Positions 14,456 to 29,992 of a DNA stretch of 64,000 nucleotides are shown in pieces (within the stretch, counting starts at the first letter, position 1; the number at the start of each line of letters is the position of its first letter). The position numbers and the translations under genes are program-made. The DNA comes from an uncultured Planctomycetota bacterium. GTDB lineage: Bacteria; Planctomycetota; Planctomycetia; Isosphaerales; Isosphaeraceae. The stretch is taken from contig CAWGMQ010000010.1 of the NCBI GenBank assembly GCA_963823665.1, positions 1,440,001 through 1,504,000 on the forward strand, in the 5' to 3' direction. The notes beneath the pieces were generated by a model that did not search any database, had not been told where the DNA came from, and saw only the letters and a program-made list of their open reading frames with translations.

Positions 14456-15481
14456 ATGTCTGACGCCCAGGTTTTTCACAGCATCGCGGGCCGCGCCGGC
14501 CTGTTTGATCGATCGGACCGCTGCCGGCTCGCCATCAGCGGGCCGGACCGGGCCAAGTTTCTGCATAACCTGGTCACAAACGAGGTCAAACGGCTGCCGG
14601 TGGGCCGAGGCTGCGAGGCGTTCGTCACGAGTCCGCAAGGCAAAACGATTGCGTTCGTGATCGTGCTGGCGACCGAGGACTCGATCTTGCTGGGCACCGA
14701 CCCGGGTGGAACCGACGCGCTGCTTCCTCATCTGGCGAAGTACGGCGTTTTCGACGACGTCGCGATCGAGGATCGTTCGGGGTCGACGTTTGAGTACCAC
14801 GTGGCTGGTCCCGCGGCTGAAGAAGTCGTGAGGAAGTGCCTGGGCCAGCTTCCGGAAGGTGTTGACTTGGCGCACGTGCAAGCCGCGTTCGGGGGAGAAC
14901 CCGTCAGGCTCATTCGTGAATCGCCGGCGGGAATGCCAGGCTTCTCGCTGGTCGGCAATCTCGACGCGGGTGTTGCGCTCAAAGCCGGCTTGCTCTCAGC
15001 CGGGAGAGGGCTGGGCCTGGTCGAAGCCGGTGGTGACGTATTCGAGGTCTTGCGGATCGAGGCGGGCACGCCGGTGTTCGGCAAGGACATCACCGAGAAG
15101 AATCTTCCCCAGGAAATCGGCCGGGATTCTCGAGCGATCAATTTCGTCAAGGGTTGCTACCTGGGTCAGGAGACCGTGGCGCGACTTGACGCACTCGGGC
15201 ACGTGAATCAAGTGCTGAAGGGCCTGCGATTTGAACCGGGCTCGCCGTGCCCTGAGCCGGGATGCCCGCTGGAAGAAGAAGGCAAGAGAGCGGGCGAGGT
15301 GACATCGGCGGCATTCTCGCCGGTACGAAACGCTCCAATCGCTCTGGCGATGGTTCGGACCAAGCCGAGCGCGGCGGGCACGAACGTTCAGATCGCACTG
15401 CCGGGCGGCAGCGTGGTTGCCGCGATCGTCAGCGACTTGCCGTTTCACGCTCACTCGAGCGAAAAAAATGGAACGCTTTGA
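14456..15481 (+). CDS. YgfZ/GcvT family folate-binding protein
   Basis: KGCYLGQETVAR signature, GPDRAKFLHNLVTN, LRIEAG. Confidence 0.92.
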   Translation: MSDAQVFHSIAGRAGLFDRSDRCRLAISGPDRAKFLHNLVTNEVKRLPVGRGCEAFVTSPQGKTIAFVIVLATEDSILLGTDPGGTDALLPHLAKYGVFDDVAIEDRSGSTFEYHVAGPAAEEVVRKCLGQLPEGVDLAHVQAAFGGEPVRLIRESPAGMPGFSLVGNLDAGVALKAGLLSAGRGLGLVEAGGDVFEVLRIEAGTPVFGKDITEKNLPQEIGRDSRAINFVKGCYLGQETVARLDALGHVNQVLKGLRFEPGSPCPEPGCPLEEEGKRAGEVTSAAFSPVRNAPIALAMVRTKPSAAGTNVQIALPGGSVVAAIVSDLPFHAHSSEKNGTL

Positions 15482-15530
15482 ACTTTGACTGCATGAAGAG
15501 AGTGAGTCATCGATCTTGACGTACGGGGTC

Positions 15531-17008
15531 ATGGCCATGAGGCAGTCGCCGGCGGTTCTCCACGACATTCACACGCTGTTTCAGGACGGGACGAGCAACG
15601 GCCTGACTGACGCCGACTTGCTCGATCGGTTCAGGGCGCGGTCTGATCTCGATGCGTCGGAGGCCGCATTCGCAGGTCTCTTGGCCCGCCACGGCCCGAT
15701 GGTTCTTGGTGTCTGCCGTCGCGCCCTGCGAAACCCGGAAGACGTCGCCGACGCGTTTCAAGCGACGTTCTTGATCCTGGTTCGTAAAGCGGATTCCGTG
15801 CGGGTGGACGACTCGCTGGGACGCTGGCTCTACGGAGTGAGCCGCCGGGTCTCGGTCCGCGCGAAACTCGCGGAGGCCCGCCGGTCGGCCAGGCAGGTTC
15901 CAGGAGCCGAGCTCGCGGCAGCCCCGGCTGACGACGCCGATCGGGACGAGCTGCGCGACGTTCTGGACGAGGAGATCGGCCGGTTACCAGAGAAATTCCG
16001 CTCGGCGGTGGTGCTCTGTGAACTGCAAGGATTCGGTCATGACGAGGCGGCGCGGCGATTGGGATGTGCCGTGGGCACGGTCAAGAGCCGGCTGAGTCGC
16101 GCACGGGAGAAGCTTCGCTCTCGGTTGATTCGCCGGGGCGTCGCGCCCGCGGCCTGGGCGGTGTATGCCGAGTCTTCATCGGCCGCGGTACCGGCAAAAC
16201 TGATGGAGGCGACAATCAACTCCGCGACCGCCGGCGCGGATGGGTCTATTCCACCGGCAGTCACTTTTCTTATCGAAGGAGTGTTACGAGCCATGTTACT
16301 GAAAAAGGTGTCGATGATCGCGGTCACCGTCGTCGCGGGCCTCGCTCTGGCGAGCAGCGCGGCAGTCCTGCGCGACAGGCAGCAGCGTTCCCGAGAGAAG
16401 GGCAACAGGACGGGCAACGCGATGAACGGAAATTCAGCGGCGACAATGAATTGAGCAACACTTCCGCTTCGTCCGGCGCCCTCTCTCGCGAATCGACGGA
16501 ACAGCAGGATGAAGCGATTGACCAGCTCGAGTTACTTCGCTTGGATATCGAACTACTCGCAGGGGAAGTCGACGCTCGTAAACTGGCGATCGGTCATACT
16601 ACTCAGAGTGTCATTCAGATGCGAGTTTCGGGCCGCGTTTCTAATACCAACGACGTTCTCCAAGGGCAGGCCAGGCAAGATCGCCTCGAAGTGCTGGAAA
16701 AAGGTCTTAACGAGGTACGGAGAGTATGGATCGCAAAGAATCGGGAGCTCAGGAAGAAAAAATCCGAGCTGGGCGAACTGGAGGCGAACGCCCAACGTGA
16801 AAGAAACAATCGGGTGGCTGGAATCAGATCCCCGCAGACGGCTGGCAAAGACAAAAGGGAAGCCGACAGGAAGAACGCAGCTTCCAATCAGCTCGCAGGC
16901 TCGCCCTCGATCGCACCGGTGCTGGAGAAACGTTTGTCCGAGATTGAACGGAAGCTCGACAGTGTTTTGAACGCACTGGAGGACTTGAAACGCGAACCGC
17001 GCGAGTGA
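15531..17008 (+). CDS. ECF RNA polymerase sigma factor with TM helix and coiled-coil extension (frameshift near 16370)
   Basis: RHGPMVLGVCRR...DAFQATFLIL (region 2), GTVKSRLSRAR (region 4); C-terminus continues in ORF 16064-17008 (LEKRLSEIERKLD). Confidence 0.88.
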
Positions 17009-17087
17009 CTCGCCTTCACGCAGCGGGCACGGCGGCGATAAGTCAGCAGGTAACAGCTTTGCTGTAGGCCGCGTGAACAGTGATTGT

Positions 17088-17241
17088 CTAGGACCCCTCG
17101 AGTCGGCCGTCCCGCTCGTCGCGCTCGAATCTGCTCGTCCCAGAGGCGATCGGCATATTCCGCGAGCCAGGCCCGGACGCGAGCCACATCGCTGGCGGGC
17201 AGACGTTCGATCGCGGCGGTAATCTCGTCGAGTGTGCTCAT
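17088..17241 (-). pseudogene. Truncated small antitoxin-like protein
   Basis: MSTLDEITAAIERLP...RVRAWL...WDEQI, then (after a 1-nt shift) ERDERDGRLE ending at ggggtcctag; no partner toxin seen. Confidence 0.55.
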
Positions 17242-17284
17242 GAGCAACTCAGCAATCCACAATTCTTGAAGTTATGACTGATGT

Positions 17285-18154
17285 TTATCGACGGCTTGGT
17301 GCCAGGGTAAGCCGAGAACTGCTACAGGTGGATTCGGCGCTCTTCTCGGCGATGATTTCCAATACCATTGGTGTCAGCATCACGGTTGTTGGATCCGATT
17401 CGGCCATCGCCCATTCGTTTCTCACTCGATCGCAGAAGCCCGCGTCCACTCGACCGAGCTCGAGGAGTCTCCGAAGATTGGTGTCCAGGAATGATGCAGG
17501 CCAGCGCCAGTGGAAATCTGCAGGGTGGACTGCGAAGATGATCGGTTCCACATGAGTAAGACGAAAACCTGCGGCCGTGAGCACGAGGGGAAGCGCGAGG
17601 GCCACGTCAGGTTCTCCGCCCGTGGCCTGCCAACTCGCCATTACCTCGGCAACGAATGCCTCGACGGCGTGTCGGCGTGGGGCGAGCCGCCAGGTCCGAT
17701 AGTCGGCGTATTCATGAAAGACAACTCTGCCCCCGACGCGGAGGGTCTGGTGGATCGCCCGCACGAGCTGCTCAGGGCTTTTGACAAATGACGCTACCCA
17801 CCGGCACCAGGCCACGTCGAATCCGGCTGCCTGGATCGGTTCGGACATCAAATCGAGCTCGTGGACGCGGACGTTGTTCAAACCGTGCCTGGCGACCGCA
17901 TCTCTCAACGCAGTGACGAACCGATCTGACCGCTCCGCCGCCACGACCTCGCCGCGGTCTCCGACGATCTCGGCCAGATCAACGGTCGCGAAGCCGGGGC
18001 CCGCACCAACGTCGAGGACGCGCGATCCAACCGTCGCGCCTGCGCGCCTCAGTGCGTCGAGCATCCTTGGCCGCCAGACTCGGTGCTGCAGGCCCAGTCG
18101 CTGTAGTTCCTCCTCATGCGTTCCAAGGACATAGTCGCGATCCAAAGTACCCAT
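17285..18154 (-). CDS. Class I SAM-dependent methyltransferase
   Basis: YVLG...EL.RL..QH N-terminus, VLDVGAGPG motif I, FDVAWCRW, LRVGGRVV. Confidence 0.92.
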   Translation of the reverse strand: MGTLDRDYVLGTHEEELQRLGLQHRVWRPRMLDALRRAGATVGSRVLDVGAGPGFATVDLAEIVGDRGEVVAAERSDRFVTALRDAVARHGLNNVRVHELDLMSEPIQAAGFDVAWCRWVASFVKSPEQLVRAIHQTLRVGGRVVFHEYADYRTWRLAPRRHAVEAFVAEVMASWQATGGEPDVALALPLVLTAAGFRLTHVEPIIFAVHPADFHWRWPASFLDTNLRRLLELGRVDAGFCDRVRNEWAMAESDPTTVMLTPMVLEIIAEKSAESTCSSSRLTLAPSRR

Positions 18155-18476
18155 GTCTTGCCCTTTCCCAACGTTTGACCTGGTGGGGAGTTTGGACAAG
18201 ATATCGCGAGCGGAACGAGCCGTCTCGCCGTTTCCGGCCGTGCAATTGCGATTCGGGCAATCTGGAGCCAGAGGCATTCTGGAGCCAGACACCCAACCTC
18301 TGGAGTTGGTTCCGGGGCACCCGTTGCAGACATCCACCGCTCAGGGGGCACCCGAGCTGTTCGCAGCAGCGGACGCGTCCAAACGCTGGCGACCTACCCG
18401 AGCGCACACGATTGCTGACCGTGCGTCTTACAGCGCGTGCTGTGCGCAACGTCGGCCGCGAGGCGCCCTGCGAACG

Positions 18477-18544
18477 CGGGACGCGAACCGGTGTCAGTCA
18501 CGTGTGCAGGTTTCGCCCGGGACCCACTCCGGTTGGTGGGTGTC
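18477..18544 (+). repeat. 68-bp direct repeat, copy 1 (ends in the intron target site)
   Basis: 67/68 identical to 26468-26535. Confidence 0.92.
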
Positions 18545-18545
18545 T

Positions 18546-19278
18546 TTGCGTCAGGAAAAGCTCGAGAAAGGAGGAAGTGCCTCGAAACACAGAAACCTTT
18601 CATCGCGACCCTGCGGGTTAACGAATCCCGCCCGGCAGAGCCTGGCCGGCAGCCGGAAGCAAGTCTTGCGTGGGGAGGGGTGACCCTCACTGCGAAGCGT
18701 AGACAGCGAGTCTCCATGCCATGCTATCGAGCCCCGAAATACTCATCGTGGGAGCCTCCGTTGTAGACACAAGCGGGGGCCGTGTCGACACGCCGCAATG
18801 GCCTGGCGTGTTCGGTCCTGCCGGGGTCCAAGAACATGGCGCAGGGACGCGAGGGTTGCTCGGGAACCTGAGAGCCCCATCCGTCTCCACTGACATTTCC
18901 GGCTCGGGAACCGGAATACCAACTCCCCGGCCCACGACCCCGCGTCGGGTCGCTGGGAGCGAACAAGACGCAAGGGTGGTATCGCCAAACGAAGGCAACG
19001 AAGTGCGGCGAAATGGGCGGACGGGAGTCGGAGTGCTCCGTAGTAGCAGTGAAGCGGGGGAATGGGCCCTCCCAGACCCTGTGGAGCGAAGGGGGTACCG
19101 TGTCGCGGACTGGAAGCCGGAACCACGCCGAGGGCATTGGACCTCAGAGCGCGTCACCGCGAGGCGACCAGATCGTGAGAGGGACAGCGACGCCGCGACA
19201 TGACGAGCCGGATGCCTTAATTGGGCACGTCCGGATCAGTGGGAGCCCTGGCGGAGCGATCCGCCAGGGCGACCCGGC
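18546..19278 (+). mobile_element. ORF-less group II intron, copy 1 (733 nt)
   Basis: Domain V GAGCCGGATGCCTTAATTGGGCACGTCCGGATC at 19205-19237; domain VI hairpin with bulged A at 19272; 5' TTGCG; EBS1 AGACAC (18765-18770) in a stem-loop pairs with exon end GTGTCT; domain IV only ~100 nt. Confidence 0.92.
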
Positions 19279-19302
19279 GGTTTCCCCGGTTGGTGGGTGT
19301 CT

Positions 19303-20035
19303 TTGCGTCAGGAAAAGCTCGAGAAAGGAGGAGGTGCCTCGAAACACAGAAACCTTTCATCGCGACCCTGCGGGTTAACGAATCCCGCCCGGCAGAGCCT
19401 GGCCGGCAGCCGGAAGCAAGTCTTGCGTGGGGAGGGGTGACCCTCACTGCGAAGCGTAGACAGCGAGTCTCCATGCCATGCTATCGAGCCCCGAAATACT
19501 CATCGTGGGAGCCTCCGTTGTAGACACAAGCGGGGGCCGTGTCGACACGCCGCAATGGCCTGGCGTGTTCGGTCCTGCCGGGGTCCAAGAACATGGCGCA
19601 GGGACGCGAGGGTTGCTCGGGAACCTGAGAGCCCCATCCGTCTCCACTGACATTTCCGGCTCGGGAACCGGAATACCAACTCCCCGGCCCACGACCCCGC
19701 GTCGGGTCGCTGGGAGCGAACAAGACGCAAGGGTGGTATCGCCAAACGAAGGCAACGAAGTGCGGCGAAATGGGCGGACGGGAGTCGGAGTGCTCCGTAG
19801 TAGCAGTGAAGCGGGGGAATGGGCCCTCCCAGACCCTGTGGAGCGAAGGGGGTACCGTGTCGCGGACTGGAAGCCGGAACCACGCCGAGGGCATTGGACC
19901 TCAGAGCGCGTCACCGCGAGGCGACCAGATCGTGAGAGGGACAGCGACGCCGCGACATGACGAGCCGGATGCCTTAATTGGGCACGTCCGGATCAGTGGG
20001 AGCCCTGGCGGAGCGATCCGCCAGGGCGACCCGGC
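19303..20035 (+). mobile_element. ORF-less group II intron, copy 2 (733 nt)
   Basis: Tandem copy at an offset of 757 bp; one difference seen (A18576 vs G19333); same GTGTCT|GGTTTCCC target. Confidence 0.92.
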
Positions 20036-20247
20036 GGTTTCCCCCCCGCGTTCTTTGCGGTAATGTGTACTGATCTCACGATAATGTTCTCACTTAGAGT
20101 GCTTGTGGCAAGTGGAAGCCAAATCGGGTCGTCAGCCGCTTGCCGGCGCCGGCATCCGAGGACGATATGCAGCTTCGGCCGGATTGTGTCGCGGACTGCA
20201 TCGGCTTGCTTGGCGTGAGCCAACGATAGGACCCTGGCGAAAGGATT

Positions 20248-23200
20248 CTACTTCGACGTCTTGCCCAGAAGTTCGTCGAGATGCGGAGTGACCGGCTCGT
20301 TTAACGGCAGGAACCAGATTGACGGCTTCTTCTGCGCACGGTATTGCCGGTCGAGAGATTCGAGCACTTCCTTGATCGTCTTGCCAGGGCCGAGGACCGC
20401 ATCGACGCGTGGCGCAATTTGTTCAGTCAGTGCCACAAACCAGGACGAGTTCTTCGCCTTCGCACTGTAGTGCTGGTCGAGCTTGTCGAGGACCTCTTTC
20501 GCGGGGATGGCCGGCCCGAGGAGTTGGTCCAGCAAGGGAGCGGCCCTTTGGTCGAGGCCGAGTTTAGTTCAGCGCCTCCCGAGCTTGATGGCGTGCGCGA
20601 GCCGCCTCGATCGCGGCCGGTGCGTCGATTGCGGGTTGGGGTGGTGGTATCCTTCCATCCTTCAATGCCGCGAGTAGCTCTGCCGACTGCGGACGGAGGG
20701 CGGGATCGATTGCCCCTACTTTCAGAGCGCTGTCGTACGCGGCGAGGGAGTCCTCGGCAGACTTTTGAGCCGCTGCCTGCGCGCCCAGACGCCACAGGCA
20801 TAGTGCGAGATGATAGCGAACTCGACCGTTCCACGATGCGTCCTCGGGCTCTGCCCGCTCGAGTTCCGGCATCAGCGCCGAGATCTCGTTGCAGGCTTTC
20901 TCCGCCAATCCGAGCTCGCGCAGCGCAGCCGCCCGGAGAATGCGAGTTCGAAGCATGGCAAAGGGCTTCACAGATTGGTCGGCCATGGGGTCTAGCGCGG
21001 CCTCGCAGAGCACGACTGAGTCGGCATGAGCACCCTCGTTGAAGGCGGCTAGGCCCCGTGCAGTCAGTTCATCCCCGTTTGGCCGAAGCAGGTTGTCGAG
21101 ATGCTGGGCGATTGGTTCATCCGGCCCGAGGAGATAGACAGCCGGCTTGCCCATTTCCTTGTAATGGCGATCCAGGAATGACAGCACGTCCGCGACTGAT
21201 CTGGTCGGGCCGATGAGCCTTTCCACCTCGGGAACGATCGGCGCCAGCTTGTCCGTCACCTCCGTCGTTGATTTGATCCGCCGGGAGATCTCGGGCTCGG
21301 CCAGCTTCAGCGCGGCGAGCAGTTGGCGGTAGTTATCGAGATTTTGACGCAGATTCGGATGCTCATGGCCCGTCGATCGTTGGAATCGCGATAAGATGCG
21401 AACGGCGCGTGCCATAAGTGGCTCGGCCGCCTCGATGCGGTTAGTGGAGAAAAGAAGCAACGCCTGATTGTTCAGGTCTCTTGCGACGGCGGGGTGATCG
21501 GGGCCGTACGTCCGTTCGTCGATGTCCATCGCCCGCCGATATAGCGGCTCGGCCTCCGACATTCGATTCGTCGCGCGGAGCAGCTCCGCCATGTTGTTGA
21601 GACTTTTTGCCACATCCGCGCTGTCGGGGCCGTACGAGCTCTGATCGATCGCCAGCGCCCGCCGCATCAGTGGCTCGGCCACCACCGTGCGGTTCGTGTC
21701 GTGGAGCAACCCCGCCAGGTTGCTGAGGTCGATCGCGACGTTGGGGTGGCGTGGGCCGTACGACCTTTCGTCGATCGCCAGCGCTCGCCGATATAGCGGC
21801 TCGGCGTCCGCGATGCGGTTCGTATCGTGGAGCAGCGTCGCCAGGTTATTGAGGCAATTCGCGACGAAAGGGTGGTCGGGCCCGTACGAATGCTCGTCGA
21901 TCGCAAGCGCCCGACGACAGAGTGGCTCGGCCTCCGCCATGCGATTCGTTGCCTGGAGCATCGCCGCCAGGTTATTGAGGCGATTCGCGACGAGAGGATG
22001 GTCGGACCCGTACGACTGCTCGTCGATCGCCAGCGCCCGGCGATAGAGCGGCTCGGCCTCCACCACGCGGTTCGTTGCCTGGAACATCGCCGCCAGGTTA
22101 TTGAGGCAATTCGCGACGAGGGGATGGCCGGGCCCGGTCGACGGCTCGGCGATCGCTAGCGCCCGGCGAAACAGCGGCTCGGCGTGCGCGGTACGGCCGG
22201 TCGCCTCGAGCAGAAGCGCCAGGTTGTTTAGGTCGGCCGCGAATTCAGCTTGGTCCGGGCCACGCGACCGCTCGTTAATCGCCAGCGCCCGACGGAATAG
22301 CGGCTCGGCCTCTGCGATGCGGTTGGTGTTACGGAGCAACTCCGCCAGGTTGTTGAGGTTAGTCGCGACGTTTGCATGGTCAGGGCCGTACGACCGCTCG
22401 TTAATCGCCAGCGCCCGACGGAATAGCGGCTCGGCCTCCGCGATGCGGTTGGTGTTGCGGAGCAACTCCGCCAGGTTGTTGGATCCCATCGCTTCCTCAC
22501 CGGGTTGCGCAGCCAGTTTCAACGCCTCGCGGAGATGGGGTTCCGCGTCGCTGTACCTCGCGAGTTCCAATAAGAGAACACCCAAATCGATACGCGAATC
22601 GAACCAGCTAGGATTCTCGCGAACAATCAGGTCACGAATTCTGAGTGCTTCGTCCCACCTCAGACTGCTTTCGTAAAGGTCAGCTTGAAGCACCGTCGGG
22701 CGATAGGCCTCGCGCAAGCGTTGGTCGGCACGATCGCGGAAAGACTTCGCCGCGCCGATTTTCCTTTCGATGGTCGGCTGTTTTTGTTCGAGGTACTTGA
22801 TTGCCGCATCGACACCCTCGATCGGTTTGTCGAGGATGTTGGCGGCTTCGATGAAAATCGGATCCGGATCTCCGGCCAAACCTTCGCGAATCGTCGCGAC
22901 GAGATCCTGTACGGCTTCCAAGGTCTGATCGCGGCGTTTCTCGATCTCGTCGCGCTTTCGCCAATCGTCAGGGGACCGCGCTTGCGCGGCGGCGATTTCT
23001 TCGACGGCCCGTCTGCGAATGTGGCTCTGCATCTTGCCGACCAGAACGTCAGGATCCGCGTCCTGTTTTCCCAGTGCTTCCAGGTTTTTGTTGACACTCG
23101 TGATTTGTGTGGTGAATCCTTGGCCGAGATTGAGCGTTACGGCCGCAACCGCCACCAGACTTGCCACGCCGATCGCGCCGAGGGCGACTCGCGTTCGTGA

Positions 23201-24043
23201 AGGAGGAGTCACGCTCGCCGGCCGCAGCCCAATCTCATTGCGCCGGAGTTCCCGCTGGAATCCACGGCGATCGGCGCCAGTGCGTTTCGTCAACAGCCCC
23301 CTGCAATAGCCCTTTAGAAGCTTGTATGCGGCTTCGGCTTGGGTCGGGTCCACGAGCACGGCAGTTCGGAGCTTGTCCATCGCCGCGTTGTCGGCATCAC
23401 CGTCGGTGCCGTCGGCACTGACATCAAGCGTATCGATTCTCATCATAGAGAAGAAATCGCGGAGATCCCTCGGCGAGGGCTCAGTCCCGTGAGTTCGGCG
23501 CCAGAATAAGTGAACATGGGAGAGGAGTATCTCAGACGCGGCTTTCTCCTCCTTGCTATTGGCGGCGTCCGTCAACACCGTACAGCGTGCATCGCCTTGG
23601 AACCGATCAAGTACGGCTGGTAGTTGCGAACAGGCCCACATAGGCGCCAGACCATCGGTCACCAGGACGAGACGATCGCGCTCCTGATCTAGCGGACGTT
23701 CCCACGGGTGATTTCCTCCCTTATGGAGTCGCTGTGACAGAAAGTGACGAACGAATTGCCCCACGGCTGATCCGAGCGCTGAATCCTCGGCGGCAGAAAG
23801 CCTTAGACCCCGCTTTGCTTGCAAATATACAGCGCCGCCGGCTGATGTGATGAGCAAGACGTCGTCGACGGGCAGTCCTGTCTCGCATCGAACTTCGGTG
23901 TAATAGACCGTTGGCTCCAACCCCCAACGCGGCGTCACAGCTTGTTCCGCGAGTACGCCGACCGCTGCCCATGCTGCGATGCTGTCCTGGAAGGAAAACC
24001 CTCCGGCAGCAGCAGCTCCGCCTCCTGTGCCAACGGGTAACAT
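20248..24043 (-). CDS. Restriction-endonuclease-like domain + TM segment + TPR repeats + C-terminal ~42-aa repeats (frameshift near 20568)
   Basis: GG..A..GFSFQ...E....VDD....YLQAK nuclease-like motif; nine 42-aa TPRs; removing one A near 20568 joins ORF 20248-20535 (ALTKLGLDQRAAPLLDQLLGP). Confidence 0.85.
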
Positions 24044-24890
24044 GCCGGCGCCCTGGTCTGATTGAGTTCGCGAACATCCCCACGAACGGGAAAAGCTCGA
24101 TTATACCAGGGCGCCGCGTGCGCCACGTGGCCATTTACTCCGGCAGCGGTTTGGGCACCGTCCGCATGCAACGGCTGAGCGGCGGTTTGTTCCTCGTATC
24201 AAAGCTCACGCGACTCGCGCTCATCGCTCGGCTTTAGGCCCGCGCGCTCGAGAAGTTCGGGGCGACGTTGGCGTTCTTGAGAACTGAGGCTCGCCACGAA
24301 AGCGGCGAGGTGGTCGTCGGTCGTCTGGGCGTCGGTTTCATTGCAAACAGGATTACAACGAGTGAACGGCCTCGCCGTTAATTGGGACGGGCTCTCCTTT
24401 GCGATCCATCGACCTTTCACTCCTAAACAAAACATCGTTCCTCGCATTTATCAGTCATGATTATGTTCGACATCAACCTGATTCGGTTTTCTGCAATTCT
24501 TCTGCACACATTGCCCATGTCAGCCCAATGCGACTACAATGCGAGCGAACACCGACGGCTATCGTGGACCTCGGCAAAATCCCTGAAATCAACGTCAAAT
24601 CAACATCAGCCCAACGTCAGACAGATGGCAGACGCGCCGGTCCCAAAATCCCGATAGATGAACGACCTCCAGATCATTGGCCGAGCTCGCCGCATCGGCG
24701 CGGTCCTCAACCGCGAATCTATTTCTCCTCTTCCGGCCGACCGTCGGGTTCCGTCCCAGGAGCTCGCCAGCCGGCCTCGGCCGAATCGGCGGTTGGCGAC
24801 GTGGCCGGGATCGGGACTTCAAGCGAGGAGTGGCGGGATCTGGTACGCTGAAGTGTGCTCAACGACTGGCGCACCAAATAGCGAGCAATT

Positions 24891-25720
24891 ATGCTAATCC
24901 GAGTCGGCTGCGAACTTCGTTTCGTCTTTCCAGAGCCCACGGCCATAATCCTGATGCTAAGCCTCCATCCGTTACGCGCGCCACGATTCGTCAGCACGAG
25001 CAGTTGCAGGTTGAACCGCTGGTTCCGTTATCTGCGTATTTTGACCAATACGGCAACCGCTGCCACCGCGCGTTCGTTCCGTCAGGCCTCGTGACGTTTA
25101 GAAATAGCGCAGTCGTCGATGACTGCGGGCTGCCGGATCTGCAGGTCCTCAATGCCCCACAAAACAATGTCCAGGACCTGCCCCAGGAGGTCCTGCAATT
25201 TCTCCTCGGCAGCCGTTATTGCGAGGTGGACAGCGAGCTGAACCAATTCGCTTGGTCCCAATTCTCACAGACCCAGGCGGGTTGGCCGCGGGTTCAAGCA
25301 GTGTGCGATTTCGTGCACCAGCATATTCGGTTCGACTACCAGAAAGCCCGGTCCAGTCGAACGGCGTGGGACGCCTATCATGAGCGCACGGGTGTATGCC
25401 GCGATTTCACGCACCTCGCGATCACCTTGTGCCGCTGCTTGAATGTGCCCGCGCGCTATTGCACCGGCTATCTGGGCGATATCGGCTTGCCACCGACGCC
25501 AAGCCCGATGGATTTCAGCGCGTGGTTCGAGGCATTCCTGGGCGGGCAATGGTACGCGTTTGACGCGCGTCACAACGTTCCCCGCATCGGTCGCGTGCTC
25601 ATGGCCCGCGGTCGTGATGCCGCCGATGTTGCCCTGACGACGACGTTTGGAATCAATCAGCTCCAGTCGCTCACCGTCTGGACCGACGAAATTGGTGTCG
25701 GATCGACCGCAGAACCGTAG
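24891..25720 (+). CDS. Transglutaminase-like protein (frameshift near 24972)
   Basis: MLIRVGCEL start; GVCRDFTHL, PARYCTGYLGDIG, DFSAWFE, GRDAADVA. Confidence 0.9.
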
Positions 25721-25776
25721 CATTGTTGCTATGGCACTCGATTCTTCGGGCCGGAGCCGTGCGAGGGGATGCTCTT

Positions 25777-26328
25777 ATGGAGTCGTGGTACTTTGCTTAT
25801 GGCAGCAATCTCTGGATGGACCAAATGATCGAGCGCACGGACTCGATCGGCCATCCCGAGAACGGTCCCAGGATCGCTCGATTGGCGAATCATCGGCTCG
25901 TGTTTCAACGGCTGGACGCCGCAGACGAAGCCTTCGCCAACATTTTATGTCCGGGAGACGGCGTGCTTGGCGTGGTCTATCGCTGTAGCCAGACGGACCT
26001 CGAGCGGTTGGACCACTACGAAGGCGGGTATGAGCGCCGGTCGATTACCGTAACCGACCAGCATGGCGAAGTCTTGGCAGCCGTTGCGTATGTCCTGATC
26101 CCTGCGCAGGCAGCAATCACCGGCAGACCCACCGCCGCGTACCTGGAACGAATCGTTAGCGGCGCGCGGCAGCATGGATTTCCCGAGGAGTACATTCGCA
26201 ACATCGCCGCCATCGCGGATTCGGCAATTCTTCGAGGCGATCACTCCGAGCAATTCGATTGCTGTTCTAACGAGGAGTTCCAGACACCCACTAATTCCCA
26301 GGTCGGAGGTGGGAATCGAGGAGGTTGA
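25777..26328 (+). CDS. Gamma-glutamylcyclotransferase family protein
   Basis: YFAYGSNL, V.GVVY...LD.YEG; the C-terminal tail runs through the repeat site at 26274-26292. Confidence 0.9.
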   Translation: MESWYFAYGSNLWMDQMIERTDSIGHPENGPRIARLANHRLVFQRLDAADEAFANILCPGDGVLGVVYRCSQTDLERLDHYEGGYERRSITVTDQHGEVLAAVAYVLIPAQAAITGRPTAAYLERIVSGARQHGFPEEYIRNIAAIADSAILRGDHSEQFDCCSNEEFQTPTNSQVGGGNRGG

Positions 26329-26449
26329 CTCGACCGATTCAGGCTGAACCGCCCGGGCATGCTGTCGGCAGGTGGTCGCCTCAATGCGCAGATTATGTCG
26401 ACGGTTGCGCACAGGGCGAATGAGGCCGGTGGCATCTTGATCGCAAAAA

Positions 26450-26467
26450 GTGGGTGTCTTTGCGTCA
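26450..26467 (+). mobile_element. Target site plus 8-nt stub of the group II intron 5' end
   Basis: gtgggtgtct|ttgcgtca is identical to the exon/intron junctions at 18536-18553 and 19293-19310. Confidence 0.7.
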
Positions 26468-26544
26468 CGGGACGCGAACCGGTGTCAGTCACGTGAGCAG
26501 GTTTCGCCCGGGACCCACTCCGGTTGGTGGGTGTCCGGTTTCCC
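26468..26544 (+). repeat. 68-bp direct repeat, copy 2, with an empty intron target site
   Basis: Matches 18477-18544, then continues gtgtcC|ggtttccc with no intron. Confidence 0.92.
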
Positions 26545-26554
26545 GTATGACCTC

Positions 26555-27285
26555 TCAGCGCGCCGGAGGTAGTTTGCTCGGCGAGAGGCGATACACTGTT
26601 GCGAATTGTTGACCACCCCGTTCGGTGACTTGATCGAGCAGGTACAACTTACCATCCTGTCCGAGGGCCATCCCCTGGATAATATCAGCTCGGCCACGGT
26701 CGAAGTTGGGCAGGTAATAGGACGTTGCCTTGCCGCTGACCGTGATCCGGCCGATCTCGAGCTCCTTCGAAGAATCGTTCGTGAACCAGAGCGATCCGTC
26801 GTCCCAACCCTGATCAATCAAGAATGGCCCGGAATTCGCCGCCGGGATCTTGTAACGCGTGACGGCGCCAGCGGTTGACACCTGGAAGACTTCGTTCTGC
26901 CCACTCAAGGTTTGGCCGTACACGATGAGGGTGCCGTTGGGCCCGTTTGCGACGCTCGGCTCAGAAAGTTCAGGGACTGGGAAATCCGTCACAACGCCGC
27001 TCGGTGACATCCGGCCGAAAACGGACTCGTTGCCCGAGTCGCCCACGCTCTCGGCGAACCAGAGATTTCCGTCGGCTCCGGCCGCGAGCGAGTCGATTGT
27101 AGGCCAATACGCGATAGTCGGCCCGGAGCTGACGGAGGAGATGGGGAACAGCTTGACAGCCCCAGCGGTCGTCATCCGTCCGATGTAGTCTGAGTTCTGA
27201 CCGTGGGAACCGAAGACCGTATAGCCGAACCAGAAGTCGCCGTCGGGCCCACTGACGATTGAGGTGTCCTGAGCGCCTCCTTCCA
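26555..27285 (-). pseudogene. 5'-truncated beta-propeller protein (virginiamycin B lyase/NHL-like)
   Basis: GPDGDFWF, GADGNLWFAE, GQDGKLY blade repeats; homology starts right at the repeat site 27286-27304. Confidence 0.75.
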
Positions 27286-27433
27286 GGGAATCCAAGACAC
27301 CCACTCTCCGCCGTGGAATCAGTGGGTGTCCGGGAATCTCTGGCAGCCCTAGCAACCCTCTGGCAACCCCTGGCTTCCCCGGGGGGTCGATGTCTGGCTT
27401 CCCAGAGGGTGGATGTCTGGCTTCCCGGCTTCC
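27286..27433. repeat. Cluster of GTGG(G/A)TGTC(T/C)GG.TTCCC sites (one inverted pair plus degenerate tandem copies)
   Basis: agacacccact 27295-27305 with agtgggtgtcc 27321-27331; gtcgatgtctggcttccc 27386-27403; gtggatgtctggcttccc 27409-27426. Confidence 0.8.
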
Positions 27434-27837
27434 CTTAGCGCGTTTGGATGCTCATTTTTACAGATCTTCGCGTACGACCAGCACAACTGGCCGGCGGTTG
27501 ATGAAAACAGGCGAAATTCTGGCGATTTCTGGCAAATGGCTCGACGCTTTTGTAGATCATATTGGTAAAGAGCGGCGTTGCGTTGCCGTCGAACGGGGGC
27601 GAGAACGCAAGGCTGGATAGGAAAGCCTTCATCGGTTTGGCGTGCCCTGGAGGATTTGCTGAAGAAACGAAGAAGCCGTGTTTTCTGTACGTGGGACGGT
27701 TGTCTTCGATATTGATCGGACGATTCGGCGTATTGCCTTGGTATGGGACGAGAACGGCGATTGGGGGTGAGACGCTTTCTCGTGATTTCGTCCCATTTCG
27801 TCCCATCAGAGCTCGATGATCCGTTTGGTCGGACCAA

Positions 27838-27955
27838 GGGCGGAGGGTGGAGGACGGAGGACGGAGGAAAGGCCGAGACAAAGATCAGGGCGGCGGGACG
27901 GAGGGCGGAGGACGGAGGAAAGGCGGAGACAAACATCAGGGCGGAGGGCGGAGGA
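27838..27955. repeat. Low-complexity GGAGG(A/G)C 7-mer repeats within longer duplicated units
   Basis: ggaggacggaggacggaggaaaggc..agacaaa.atcagggcgg occurs twice. Confidence 0.7.
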
Positions 27956-28413
27956 GACTTGCTCGAAATGGACGAATTCCACATCTATTGCGCAAATAAA
28001 CTGGGGCGTTTGTAGATCATTTGGGTAGAGGCCGAGGGTACCGTCATTAGAATACGAGTACGAGTACGAGCAGGAGGGGACGTGTCGGGCCTACGACTTC
28101 GAGATCGACCTTCGTTGCGTCGGCGGTAAAGATGTCGCCACGATGCCCGGCCGACCAGCAAGGCGACGTCCTCCGCTATTGCCACCGTTTCATCGTTTCA
28201 AAACGCGTTGAACGTGCTCATCTGAATGAGAATCTTTAACGCGAGACTGATGGTTAATCGCCTATCGCGGTTGAATTTGTGTTTTTACGCAGAGATTTAC
28301 AAGTGTGATTGAGAGATAGCCAACGCCCAAAACCCGCGCATAGTATAAGAGGAGGCCGGCTGCGGGCATGGTGGTCGAGTCACCGTTGGTCTGCGCGGCG
28401 ATCCGCCTGGCTT

Positions 28414-28459
28414 CCCCCCCCACCGCCGCCTGCGGCGGCACCTCGCCGACGGTGGGCTA
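28414..28459. repeat. REP-like palindrome
   Basis: ccgccgcctgcggcggcacctc; related copy ccgccgcgtgcggcggcacctc at 29800-29821. Confidence 0.6.
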
Positions 28460-29629
28460 CTCGATCACGATCGCCGACGCCCGAGTTGGCGCGATCGGCA
28501 CCCACGTCTCTGGAACCGAGAATGACTGCTTCGTTTGCTCGATCGCGTGCTCGAGGACCTCAGCCCGGCCTGGCGATGCCCGTGCAGTGGGAAAAACGCG
28601 GCCGCACTGCGCCTGTAAATAGGGATCGGTGCTCGACGAAATTCCACCAAATCTTGAGCTGTGCCGGGCGTGGGACGGGTCTGGACCCCGGTACGGGTGA
28701 GTTTTCTCCTCGCGGGCCGGGCAAACCTGGAGAGGGGCTCGTGGCGTTATCCTCTTTGGCGGTCAGCATTTCCGTACGGCTGCGAGGCTTCCCGGCCAGC
28801 CATCGGACGGGGTTCAAGACGGCAACCAAAATGAGACCTTTTTCAGGGTGATTCGTCCCATTTCGTCTCATTTTGTCTCATTCATTTCTACTTATTTGAA
28901 GCCTGCGAGACATTTCTCGAGAGCCCATCCGCGGAACGCAACAGGGCACTGCGATCTTATGTGGGGAATGCCCGAAACAAGAACGACGAGGGCCACGTAC
29001 CGCCTGCTGGCGCTGCCAATTTACCCCGGTGTACGGATGCTTGATGGGCTCCGGTACTTGCCACTTTTTGCCATTTTTCGAGTCGGCGAACGGTTGTCAC
29101 GCGCGGAGCACGTTATCTGGAACTTCAGTTTGTTCCAGGCATAAGAGGCTGATGGATCGACCGAAACCTTTTTCACATGTGGACTTGCGGAGGGCGGACG
29201 AGGTGGGCTCTGGGGGTGGAGCGCTGCGCCGTCTGCGGGGTGGCGATTCGGGGCCGGAATCAGGACGGAGGGCGGAGGGCGGAGGACGAAGCGCGGAGCG
29301 AAAAGAGCCGGAAGCCGGAAAGCGGGGATCGGAAGAGACCTTCATCGTGGTATCACTCTGGTATCATTTCGCACCAGGGGGCGAGAGGCTGGTGGATCGA
29401 CCGAAGACATGTGCGCATTTGCGTTTGCGGAGGGCGGCCGAACCGGATTCGGGGGGCTGTGCCAGGTCGCGGGCCGCACCTTGGCGATTTTGGGCCAAAG
29501 CCGGGCGATTGCGGGCGAGGTTTCGGCTTCGAATTCGGCCCTTGGCTCGGCATCTGGACCGCGTTAGGGCGTTCCCGTAGTCCTTGTGGGGTAAGGATGC
29601 GCGACGAATAAACAAAACGAAAGCGGGGA

Positions 29630-29752
29630 TGAAATCCGAAATTCGAAGTACGAAATTCGAAGGGGAAGGAGCAGCGAAGGGAGGAGGACTGAGTACGAGT
29701 AAGAGCAGGAGTACGAGTAAGAGCACGAGTAAGAGTAAGAGTAAGAGCAGGA
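29630..29752. repeat. Short tandem repeats (AAATTCG 7-mers and GAGTA(A/C) 6-mers)
   Basis: gaaatccgaaattcgaagtacgaaattcgaa; gagtacgagtaagagcaggagtacgagtaagagcacgagtaagagtaag. Confidence 0.75.
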
Positions 29753-29992
29753 GAGAATACCGTCGGGCTCCGGAGCCATCCGACTGCACGACCCCCGTTC
29801 CGCCGCGTGCGGCGGCACCTCACCCACGGGGTGGGGGGCTACGCGAGCGAGTGCCGATCAACGTTGACCGCCTTTGCGAATTATGACAAAACTCCCCGGC
29901 CAGTTACGGCCGATCGAAAGTGTGTCGGCTGGACGCATCTCACACCGACGTCGTTCTTAGCATCGTCGACCTCTCAGGACGAGGAGTCGCTC

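Follow-up and report, generated by a model that had tools for sequence, protein, structure and literature searches.

A Repeated Word in a Planctomycete Genomic Island as the Probable End Motif of a Y1/HUH-Type Mobile Element Shared with Group II Introns

The DNA considered here, a window of 64,000 nucleotides from an uncultured Isosphaeraceae bacterium of the Planctomycetota (GenBank assembly GCA_963823665.1, contig CAWGMQ010000010.1, positions 1,440,001 to 1,504,000 of the forward strand), contains an island in which a short word recurs between and beside unrelated genes, and which an earlier note had put forward as a candidate cassette-like gene-capture system. Judged by sequence comparison, the word is very likely a terminal motif that faces outward at the ends of Y1/HUH-type mobile elements of one family and of their short derivatives, a degree of confidence that applies jointly to this and to the presence of a group II intron at the same word. 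The island itself is a patchwork of scars and not an ordered gene-cassette array. The explanation as a whole, in which the Y1 end motif would be nicked and rejoined in trans 7-8 bases outside itself while the intron sits directly after it, is considered probable.

The Repeated Word and the Y1/HUH Element

All 11 sites listed in the earlier note were recovered from the window exactly where it had placed them, but the word that they share is a core of 9-10 bases, RTGGRTGTCY, only three of them fitting the 18-mer that had been proposed. The 10-base form GTGGRTGTCY is exact at nine sites and has one mismatch at the remaining two (27386 on the + strand and 18287-18296 on the - strand), and the 8-base tail GG(T/C)TTCCC is exact at three (26527, 27386, 27409), with 3-7 mismatches at the other eight, three of which read TTGCGTCA, identical to the start of the intron. 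With up to 3 mismatches, the full 18-mer has 3 matches in the window (0.32 expected). The claim that the word is found nowhere else in the window holds for the exact core, which has 9 matches, all of them in 18328-27418 (0.43 ± 0.59 in 40 shuffles, maximum 2), but not for cores with one mismatch, of which there are 19 against 12.9 ± 3.6 expected, seven of them beyond the island. The inverted pairs of variable spacing described before are present (26282/26459, 27295/27331, and 18328/18545), as are the short tandem duplications, or stutters. The window thus described contains three clusters (A, B, and C) of short element derivatives. The motif is also spread over the genome at large: the pattern DTGGRTGTCYG has 253 matches in the source genome (G000; 16.5 Mb in 12 contigs, 92% complete) as opposed to 25 for the reversed control, clustered and not specific to the island. 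The same-genus relative G001 has 214 versus 26, which is the sole expansion of this kind among 40 relatives, the others having 5-63 matches. Counts other than those of pattern searches are based on motif-rich stretches of the genomes.

Consistent with the earlier suggestion of an HUH/Y1 (RAYT-like) enzyme acting in trans, the motif brackets a Y1-like gene that is encoded elsewhere in the source genome. The gene adjoins a motif cluster on contig C7 and has 50-66 matches in this genome, three near-full-length frames being open. Among 24 loci of the protein family in the source genome, two pairs of which are the same element, the motif faces outward on both sides at 11, on one side at 7, and on neither at 6, and at the both-ended loci it is mostly positioned ~200 bp upstream of the gene and ~300 bp past its stop. 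Such bracketing is absent at all ten source-genome loci found with Pfam Y1_Tnp. The gene-bearing element is multi-copy and ~1.8 kb long (nine elements of 951-1786 bp were excised in silico), and the same tips close a 135-bp derivative with 42 matches in the source genome and 47 in G001, the derivatives closed by the outward motif spanning 37-220 bp, 37-bp minis included. Single tips have no local hairpin, but inverted tips are able to form a stem with one another. Outside the source genome, the exact motif occurs at both ends of 14 of 36 Y1 loci (left end 21, right end 22), a count that omits 7 of 43 loci, mostly short matches, and that draws many loci from few genomes. Next to eight homologues from Gammaproteobacteria, for which there were 13 records, 27 of the 30 loose matches to the motif face outwards; one record has an exact core at either end, and most have variants.

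The product of the full-length gene, a protein of 409 aa, is predicted to be a Y1/HUH enzyme with signatures of TnpA-Y1 subclass 2.3, an assignment for which profile support is modest. It carries the motifs NHLH, WAGRF, and YVDLNP, with H76, H78, the W, and Y189 invariant or nearly so across 91 sequences, ~170 aa between H23 and Y189, and a long C-terminal tail. Its closest named homologues are Isosphaeraceae/Planctomycetota records, it is 34-50% identical to gammaproteobacterial proteins of 321-365 aa, some of them in Alteromonadales, and 6281 homologues were obtained at E<=1e-20 among 8000 candidates scored. NF047646 matches at E 4e-8, Pfam Y1_Tnp is found in 12 of the 91 family members, and PF01797 is present in 20-27% of the members of its protein-atlas neighbours, with a similarity of 0.95 to clusters in which the share is 25%. 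Subclass 2.3 is described as having the motifs NHYH, WE, and YVDLNP with an NHxH pattern, a 172-aa core with a ~55-aa insertion between HUH and Y, a median length of 325 aa, and no REP-like (repetitive extragenic palindromic) structure flanking its genes (PMC6006769). The motif set and the long core and tail of the present protein agree with that description, and NHxH, W, and YVDLNP, a long protein with an insertion, and several moderately diverged copies per genome are common to both; what sets the present element apart from the subclass as reported is the conserved outward end motif, the short derivatives, and the boundary at +7/+8 (discussed below), together with the planctomycete host and the length of 409 aa as opposed to the median of 325. 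For this widespread Y1/HUH subclass, the ends of which have been reported as unidentifiable, the motif would provide a substrate together with a predicted cut site.

As far as the accounts drawn on here allow, the closest known system is that of the TIRtrons (TIRYT), in which a Y1 gene lies between terminal inverted repeats (TIRs) and TIR copies occur singly, as dimers, and in clusters; the consensus GGGGWSAS is given for some TIRtrons only, and most of them belong to subclass 2.1 (PMC3733652). The element shares with them the Y1 gene flanked by inverted ends, the dispersed end copies, the dimers, and the clusters, and falls within their loose definition, whereas its tip reads GGGA-NN-YC-AGACACCCA, which departs from GGGGWSAS; it may overlap with an individual TIR listed there. 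So far as drawn on here, that account gives no cut rule, stutters, or intron (PMC3733652). A published description of this end word, of the offset, or of an intron in Y1 ends was not found in a literature search that covered subscription journals little.

A Fixed Boundary Beyond the Core and a Possible Nick-and-Rejoin Mechanism

Sequence conservation at the tips stops at +8 past the core, the tail having the consensus G-G-(C/G)-(A/T)-T-C-C-C, and for the duplications, the gene breaks, and the joints with foreign DNA one edge is at +7/+8 while the other varies, so that the proposed tie of gene breakpoints to the motif takes the form of a fixed offset from the core. A tandem-duplication junction lies at +5..+10 in 58 of 229 sites, compared with 8 and 13 of 229 for control placements further inward, 2 and 5 of 229 for those further out, and 5 of 600 for random ones. 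Of 28 innermost exact duplications, with lengths of 7-103, 25 fit +7/+8; half of the 28 have no microhomology and half have 1 or more bases of it. Same-direction stutters are also found at single tips of the 1.8-kb elements. The offset is kept where the tail has changed, in that the core at 26460 is followed by TTGCGTCA and next by 77 nt from a different element end, and remnants of the intron, TTGCGTC(A/T) with other DNA behind them, occur here, in four copies on contig C3 (one event with four different flanks), and at two further loci. Among sequencing runs, examined as contigs, one from another study (X2) is 88% like element B of the window, with 20 differences in 169 nt, and departs from it exactly at 26467, where a different flank begins. 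A second contig (X1), which departs from the window sequence at 27426, is possibly from the source sample and was excluded as independent evidence. Homology of the flank to other loci was seen for 70 of 162 outermost ends, many of these matches being other element pieces, and begins within 0..+9 for 25 of them and within +10..+19 for 10. Stuttering is also seen in other records. In one from Isosphaeraceae, a run of >20 stuttered tips follows a single Y1 gene (L125:+315..+806), and in another planctomycete record (L139) the tail TTGCGTTC of three stuttered tips is possibly what is left of an intron.

In the strand-level mechanism that we propose, and toward which the balance tips modestly, the enzyme would be supplied in trans from copies elsewhere in the genome and would nick the strand that reads tail-AGACACCCA, at a point 7-8 bases beyond the motif, staying bound to the 5' end of the element. 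Host polymerase would then extend the free 3'-OH of the flank over the tip, following which the extended 3'-OH would attack the phosphotyrosine and rejoin the strand, leaving a stutter of any length with no need for homology; if the attacking 3'-OH belonged to a different site, a one-ended deletion or capture would result instead. A nick-prime-rejoin model has been proposed for the amplification of bacterial interspersed mosaic elements (BIMEs), with mention of the sequestering of flanking genes (PMC3333891), and the stutters look like the footprint of that model for REP/BIME amplification, made testable by a motif of 9 bases and one protein. The HUH chemistry is described in PMC8266576, and REPtron cleavage is reported between C and T or between C and A at a variable distance (PMC3333891, PMC8266576). 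HUH chemistry, non-autonomous repeats, and a putative nick-prime-rejoin step would be common to the present system and the REPtron/TnpA-REP (RAYT) systems as these sources present them. It differs from them in lacking a GTAG-footed hairpin, in a boundary at fixed distance that tolerates a changed tail, and in a multi-copy gene that seems to travel together with its ends, unlike the single-copy gene of the REPtron. The system is thus not a REPtron, which is defined by a GT(A/G)G hairpin and a single-copy gene. A fixed-distance, tail-tolerant cut, if true, would differ from site selection in IS200/IS605 and RAYT systems.

With the elements still taken to be Y1 ends, such a reaction could be dispensed with if stutters and joints arose by host slippage or repair at hairpins of the inverted tips, or by IS608-like excision with two cuts. 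The ability of inverted tips to form a stem, the precision of whole short elements at both ends, the C-rich tail, and the 14 of 28 junctions with microhomology would all fit these routes. The half of the junctions that lack microhomology, the same-direction stutters at single tips of 1.8-kb elements, and the maintenance of the offset across the TTGCGTCA tail do not, nor does the count of head-to-tail tip junctions, which is zero in the source genome and in G001, though inserting circles would open there. Overall, we regard these routes as unlikely.

It has to be noted that several observations weigh against nicking and rejoining by this enzyme at this motif. The six family loci with no motif nearby include two open genes of 45% identity, and with ten other Y1-type loci in the source genome the cutting enzyme is identified by association. 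The NCBIfam score (NF047646) is below its cut-off (33 vs 80 bits), Pfam Y1_Tnp misses 79 of the 91 members, profile matches to transposases in PDB are not significant (E 0.5) and phmmer against PDB gave nothing, and the predicted structure is poor, with a predicted local distance difference test (pLDDT) score of 56. The reversed-pattern control is a lenient one, since counts 2-5 fold above it are found in many relatives with no expansion of the motif; the C-rich tail at +6..+8 widens the junction ranges, and neither sites within a stutter run nor those in sister genomes can be treated as independent. The motif is absent from both island edges and from the left edge (24792) of a block of 97% identity described below, and no clean empty-versus-filled pair was found for any whole element. 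Strand and polarity are supported solely by duplication geometry, and nicking, extension, and rejoining by the Y1 enzyme are deduced from sequence.

Group II Introns at the Element Ends

The two 733-nt introns of the window start directly after the core, and the source genome has 14 full or near-full copies of this intron without an open reading frame (ORF) and 6 ORF-bearing ones. All 21 distinct 5' intron flanks end in TGGGTGTCY, in keeping with the earlier proposal that the introns exploit the same sites, and the exon-binding site 1 (EBS1) AGACAC is complementary to GTGTCT in 20 of the 21. Group II features comprise a match to RF02005 (domains 1-4), domain 5 at 19205 and 19962, and a domain 6 hairpin with a bulged A, the z-score of whole-RNA folding being only -1.9. 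The reverse transcriptase (RT) of the sister copies scores 330 bits with TIGR04416 (cut-off 300), and two full copies are open. The intron is likely to be present at the motif by homing to it, and its ORF-less form would be mobilised in trans by the ORF-bearing sister copies.

In related introns, found at 26 loci in 10 other genomes, EBS1 changes with the target in 17 of the 19 that have a locatable start, and their targets include GGTCTGACC and TGACCTGACA, which are like TIRtron ends, and the opposite strand of the motif. Introns beginning with TTGCG at L301-L329 (G002, G003, G008, G014, G017, and G001) have an EBS1 that matches GGTCTGACC, TGACCTGACA, CCAGACA, or ATGATGTCC, and appear to be a retargeting clade, several of whose target words are like the ends of Y1 elements. 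A second intron follows AGACA, on the opposite strand of the same tip, at L325, L333, and L318 (G001). Among distant RT relatives, present in 11 of 300 genomes of the phylum, the exact motif precedes a recognisable intron start at none of 18 loci outside the source genome.

The stutter unit between the window introns is evident from a repeat of period 757 (18529-19287, one mismatch). Reading this 757-bp tandem as a single duplication made by the Y1 enzyme was ruled out, given the 733 nt that separate its outer edge from the core and a parallel on contig C3, where a 33-nt stutter carries one ORF-less and one ORF-bearing intron. The window pair is instead likely to be a 24-nt stutter whose two sites were invaded separately.

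One could also hold that the motif is nothing but the target word of the intron and that the rearrangements are by-products of its RT. The form RTGGGTGTCT of the core is indeed the word that would be read by EBS1 (AGACAC) together with a candidate EBS2 (CCAT at 18714 or 18719, an inferred position), and ~20 intron copies lie inside motif clusters. This possibility is, however, largely refuted because of the offset, the breakpoints being at +7/+8 and not at the intron insertion point (0); in addition, the Y1 gene is bracketed by the motif in other phyla, and most sites are intron-free (253 matches with the tail G as opposed to 21 intron flanks). It is accordingly rated as very improbable.

If the Y1 element is the target, the pair of intron and transposase would be a compact case of a parasite upon a parasite. 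A group II intron of Sinorhizobium meliloti, RmInt2, is known to home into the inverted repeats of ISRm17, with two sites per element (PMC4615759). The present case differs from it, as described in that source, in that the target is the end of a Y1/HUH element, that the intron has an ORF-less form, and that the element seems to stay joinable, 7-8 intron bases being kept as a tail. The IIC-attC introns use the sites of integrons (PMC7923331), and the island resembles integrons and these introns, so far as the source describes them, in having repeated sites among accessory genes that are also used by an intron.

The Island, Its Cargo, and the Question of Gene Capture

From left to right, the first part described here is a class I S-adenosylmethionine-dependent methyltransferase ORF (17285..18154, - strand; Pfam Methyltransf_11, E 1e-13), which lies beyond the left tip of cluster A and has no DNA match at E<=1e-15 in the 40 relatives. 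The left-facing tips of cluster A (18262..18337, - strand), whose cores occupy 18287-18295 and 18328-18336 and which include a partial stutter of 17 nt (18262-18278), resemble Y1-element ends elsewhere in the source genome. They are followed by the last ~190 nt of a Y1-element right end (18353..18545, + strand), a non-autonomous derivative with the core TGGGTGTCT at its end, which matches the right ends of all nine excised Y1 elements at 69-82% identity. Next, all on the + strand, are the ORF-less intron copy 1 (18546..19278; 733 nt, TTGCG...GACCCGGC, RF02005 at 138 bits, with EBS1 at 18765-18770 and domain 5 from 19205), the 24-nt stutter unit (19279..19302), made of a 7-nt tail and 17 nt closing with the core and providing the second intron site, the ORF-less copy 2 (19303..20035), which differs from copy 1 by one base, and the 8-nt tail GGTTTCCC that terminates the right end of cluster A (20036..20043). 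The site-free cargo (20248..24043, - strand) consists of a 95-aa ORF with a weak DUF5678 match and a 1159-aa TPR protein, with homologues ~70% identical at other loci of the source genome and of G001. After it come a dispersed repeat copy of ~165 bp (24485..24651, + strand), att-remnant-like, unrelated to the motif, and a second source of island DNA, and the transglutaminase and GGCT block (24792..26275, + strand), whose right edge falls on the cut site predicted for cluster B.

Element B (26274..26467, no strand assigned) has a 178-bp core with inverted tips and 8-nt tails, the right tail being TTGCGTCA, the first 8 nt of the intron, and is joined at its +8 to a 77-nt piece, in intron-free form, of the right end also present at 18477-18545 (26468..26544, + strand), which is 99% identical over 68 nt to 18477-18544. 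The 5'-truncated Vgb-like beta-propeller gene (26555..27286, - strand; Pfam Vgb_lyase) has its stop codon ~10 nt from the cluster B cut site and is broken at that of cluster C. The latter cluster comprises a 37-bp mini-element with inverted tips and tails (27287..27339, no strand assigned), 83% like four mini-elements on contig C3, and a right-end stutter run (27340..27426, + strand) with cores at 27387 and 27410 and an 8-nt stutter ending at 27426+8. The five cargo labels of the earlier note (methyltransferase, TPR, transglutaminase, GGCT/AIG2, and Vgb-like propeller) are confirmed by Pfam, but the nuclease domain that it had placed in the TPR protein has no Pfam or NCBIfam match.

Comparison with relatives shows a variable region (15447-29860) that reaches 2.4-2.8 kb past the outermost motifs. 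G001 and G008 retain the flanks and lack this region entirely, having 4.3 kb of other DNA and ~0.3 kb, respectively, in its place; the outer edges are motif-free. Searching for the outer flanks joined as an empty site gave no convincing match. A different locus of G001 matches the transglutaminase-GGCT block over 1485 bp at 97% identity, the syntenic flanks being 78-88% identical, which indicates that the block has moved recently; the right joint of the block is spanned by a contig from a further study, of which 31 letters fall on the short side. About 160 codons are missing from the start of the Vgb-like gene, ~243 remaining compared with stop-to-stop frames of 407-411 aa at two paralogous loci; the gene is cut at 27287 and has a tip on either side. 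The source genome contains no second copy of the cargo genes that is nearly identical, and therefore no donor for them, the best copies reaching only 65-71%. At the G001 locus with the matching block (L216:9842-11594), three kinds of end word surround the block, namely GGGGTCAGAC, repeats of GGTGTCAGGAAC, and TGGCTGTCT, and another Y1 gene lies 1.5 kb away; an ORF near 14473-15000 of L216 has a recurring LQWGRAWLSAE, suggestive of a CRISPR-like repeat array.

An ordered array of cassettes, the strong form of what the earlier note had envisaged, is not supported by this comparison. Integron cassettes carry attC sites, one for each of a series of co-oriented genes, and an integron-like system would have sites that delimit gene-sized units, precise excision and insertion, and an ordered array. 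Some features do speak for it, such as the same-orientation runs of the 135-bp derivative in the source genome and in G001, a 1141-bp piece between two tips that is 97.6% identical between them, and the Vgb fragment with tips on either side. The tips found here, however, are those of three small elements pointing at the cargo. Genes are broken at the joints, 6.2 kb of the window (20044 to 26273, with four ORFs and the unrelated repeat) is free of sites, the island genes lie in both orientations, and head-to-tail tip junctions number zero in both genomes. Of 18 pieces common to motif-rich loci of the source genome and G001 (>=250 bp, >=90%), ~5 have a convincing cut-site end and 3 more pieces are doubtful, chance being 0.4-2.4% per end, and no piece is precise at its two ends in both genomes. 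The co-orientation of the runs may also stem from replication-strand bias. A cassette system of this kind is thus quite unlikely. In agreement with the earlier note, no attC-like site was found, a simple R-box pattern having 0 matches in 18000-27600, and none of 18 TIGR02249 matches to integron integrase exceeds the cut-off in the 92%-complete source genome. Unlike integrons, the island has no IntI over the cut-off, no attC-like site, and no one-site-per-gene layout, and its genes are truncated; the system is not an integron.

Elements of the IS91/ISCR/Helitron type use an HUH enzyme and carry adjacent DNA from one fixed and one variable end; their ori and ter ends are distinct, and their transposase is of another family. 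In the present element, by contrast, both tips have the same motif in inverted orientation. A broader reading can be offered tentatively and only as a joint set of claims, namely, that subclass-2.3 Y1 elements might serve as an engine of one-ended gene shuffling, similar to Helitron/ISCR elements except that the two tips are identical and the cut is of a ruler type. Neighbouring DNA would be captured and trimmed, co-oriented accessory arrays would form with no attC, cargo would be swapped between species (97% blocks in genomes ~80% alike), and invading introns would be shed by cuts 7-8 bases in, while an intron clade would follow the different Y1 end words through changes in its EBS1.

The same-orientation runs of the 135-bp derivative have a spacing of 1-7 kb and agree in orientation for 8/9, 5/5, 7/7, 5/5, 5/5, and 3/5 copies in the source genome, with others in G001. 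They are found, among accessory genes and fragments, at G000:C11:551k-580k, C6:910k-923k, and C11:696k-717k and at G001:C5:3395k-3430k and C4:3171k-3191k. The 1141-bp piece, labelled by eye as PIN/VapBC-like, lies at L037:7185-8325 and in L318. The ~165-bp repeat (24485-24651) has 10 further matches in the source genome at 73-91%, one of them ~600 bp from a tyrosine-recombinase match (C4:498746 vs 499532). Its end, judged by eye, was presumed to be part of a tRNA-Leu, an identity rejected after ARAGORN (0 of 8 loci) and Rfam (nothing) failed to confirm it. Other dispersed, apparently non-coding repeats with no motif occur in 27435-29860 (e.g. 28460-28910 and 29350-29620), each with many copies in the source genome and several in G001. 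At the left of the variable region (15516-17008), an ECF (extracytoplasmic function) sigma-factor ORF extends to 16454 and an overlapping ORF to 17008, the two possibly being one frameshifted gene.

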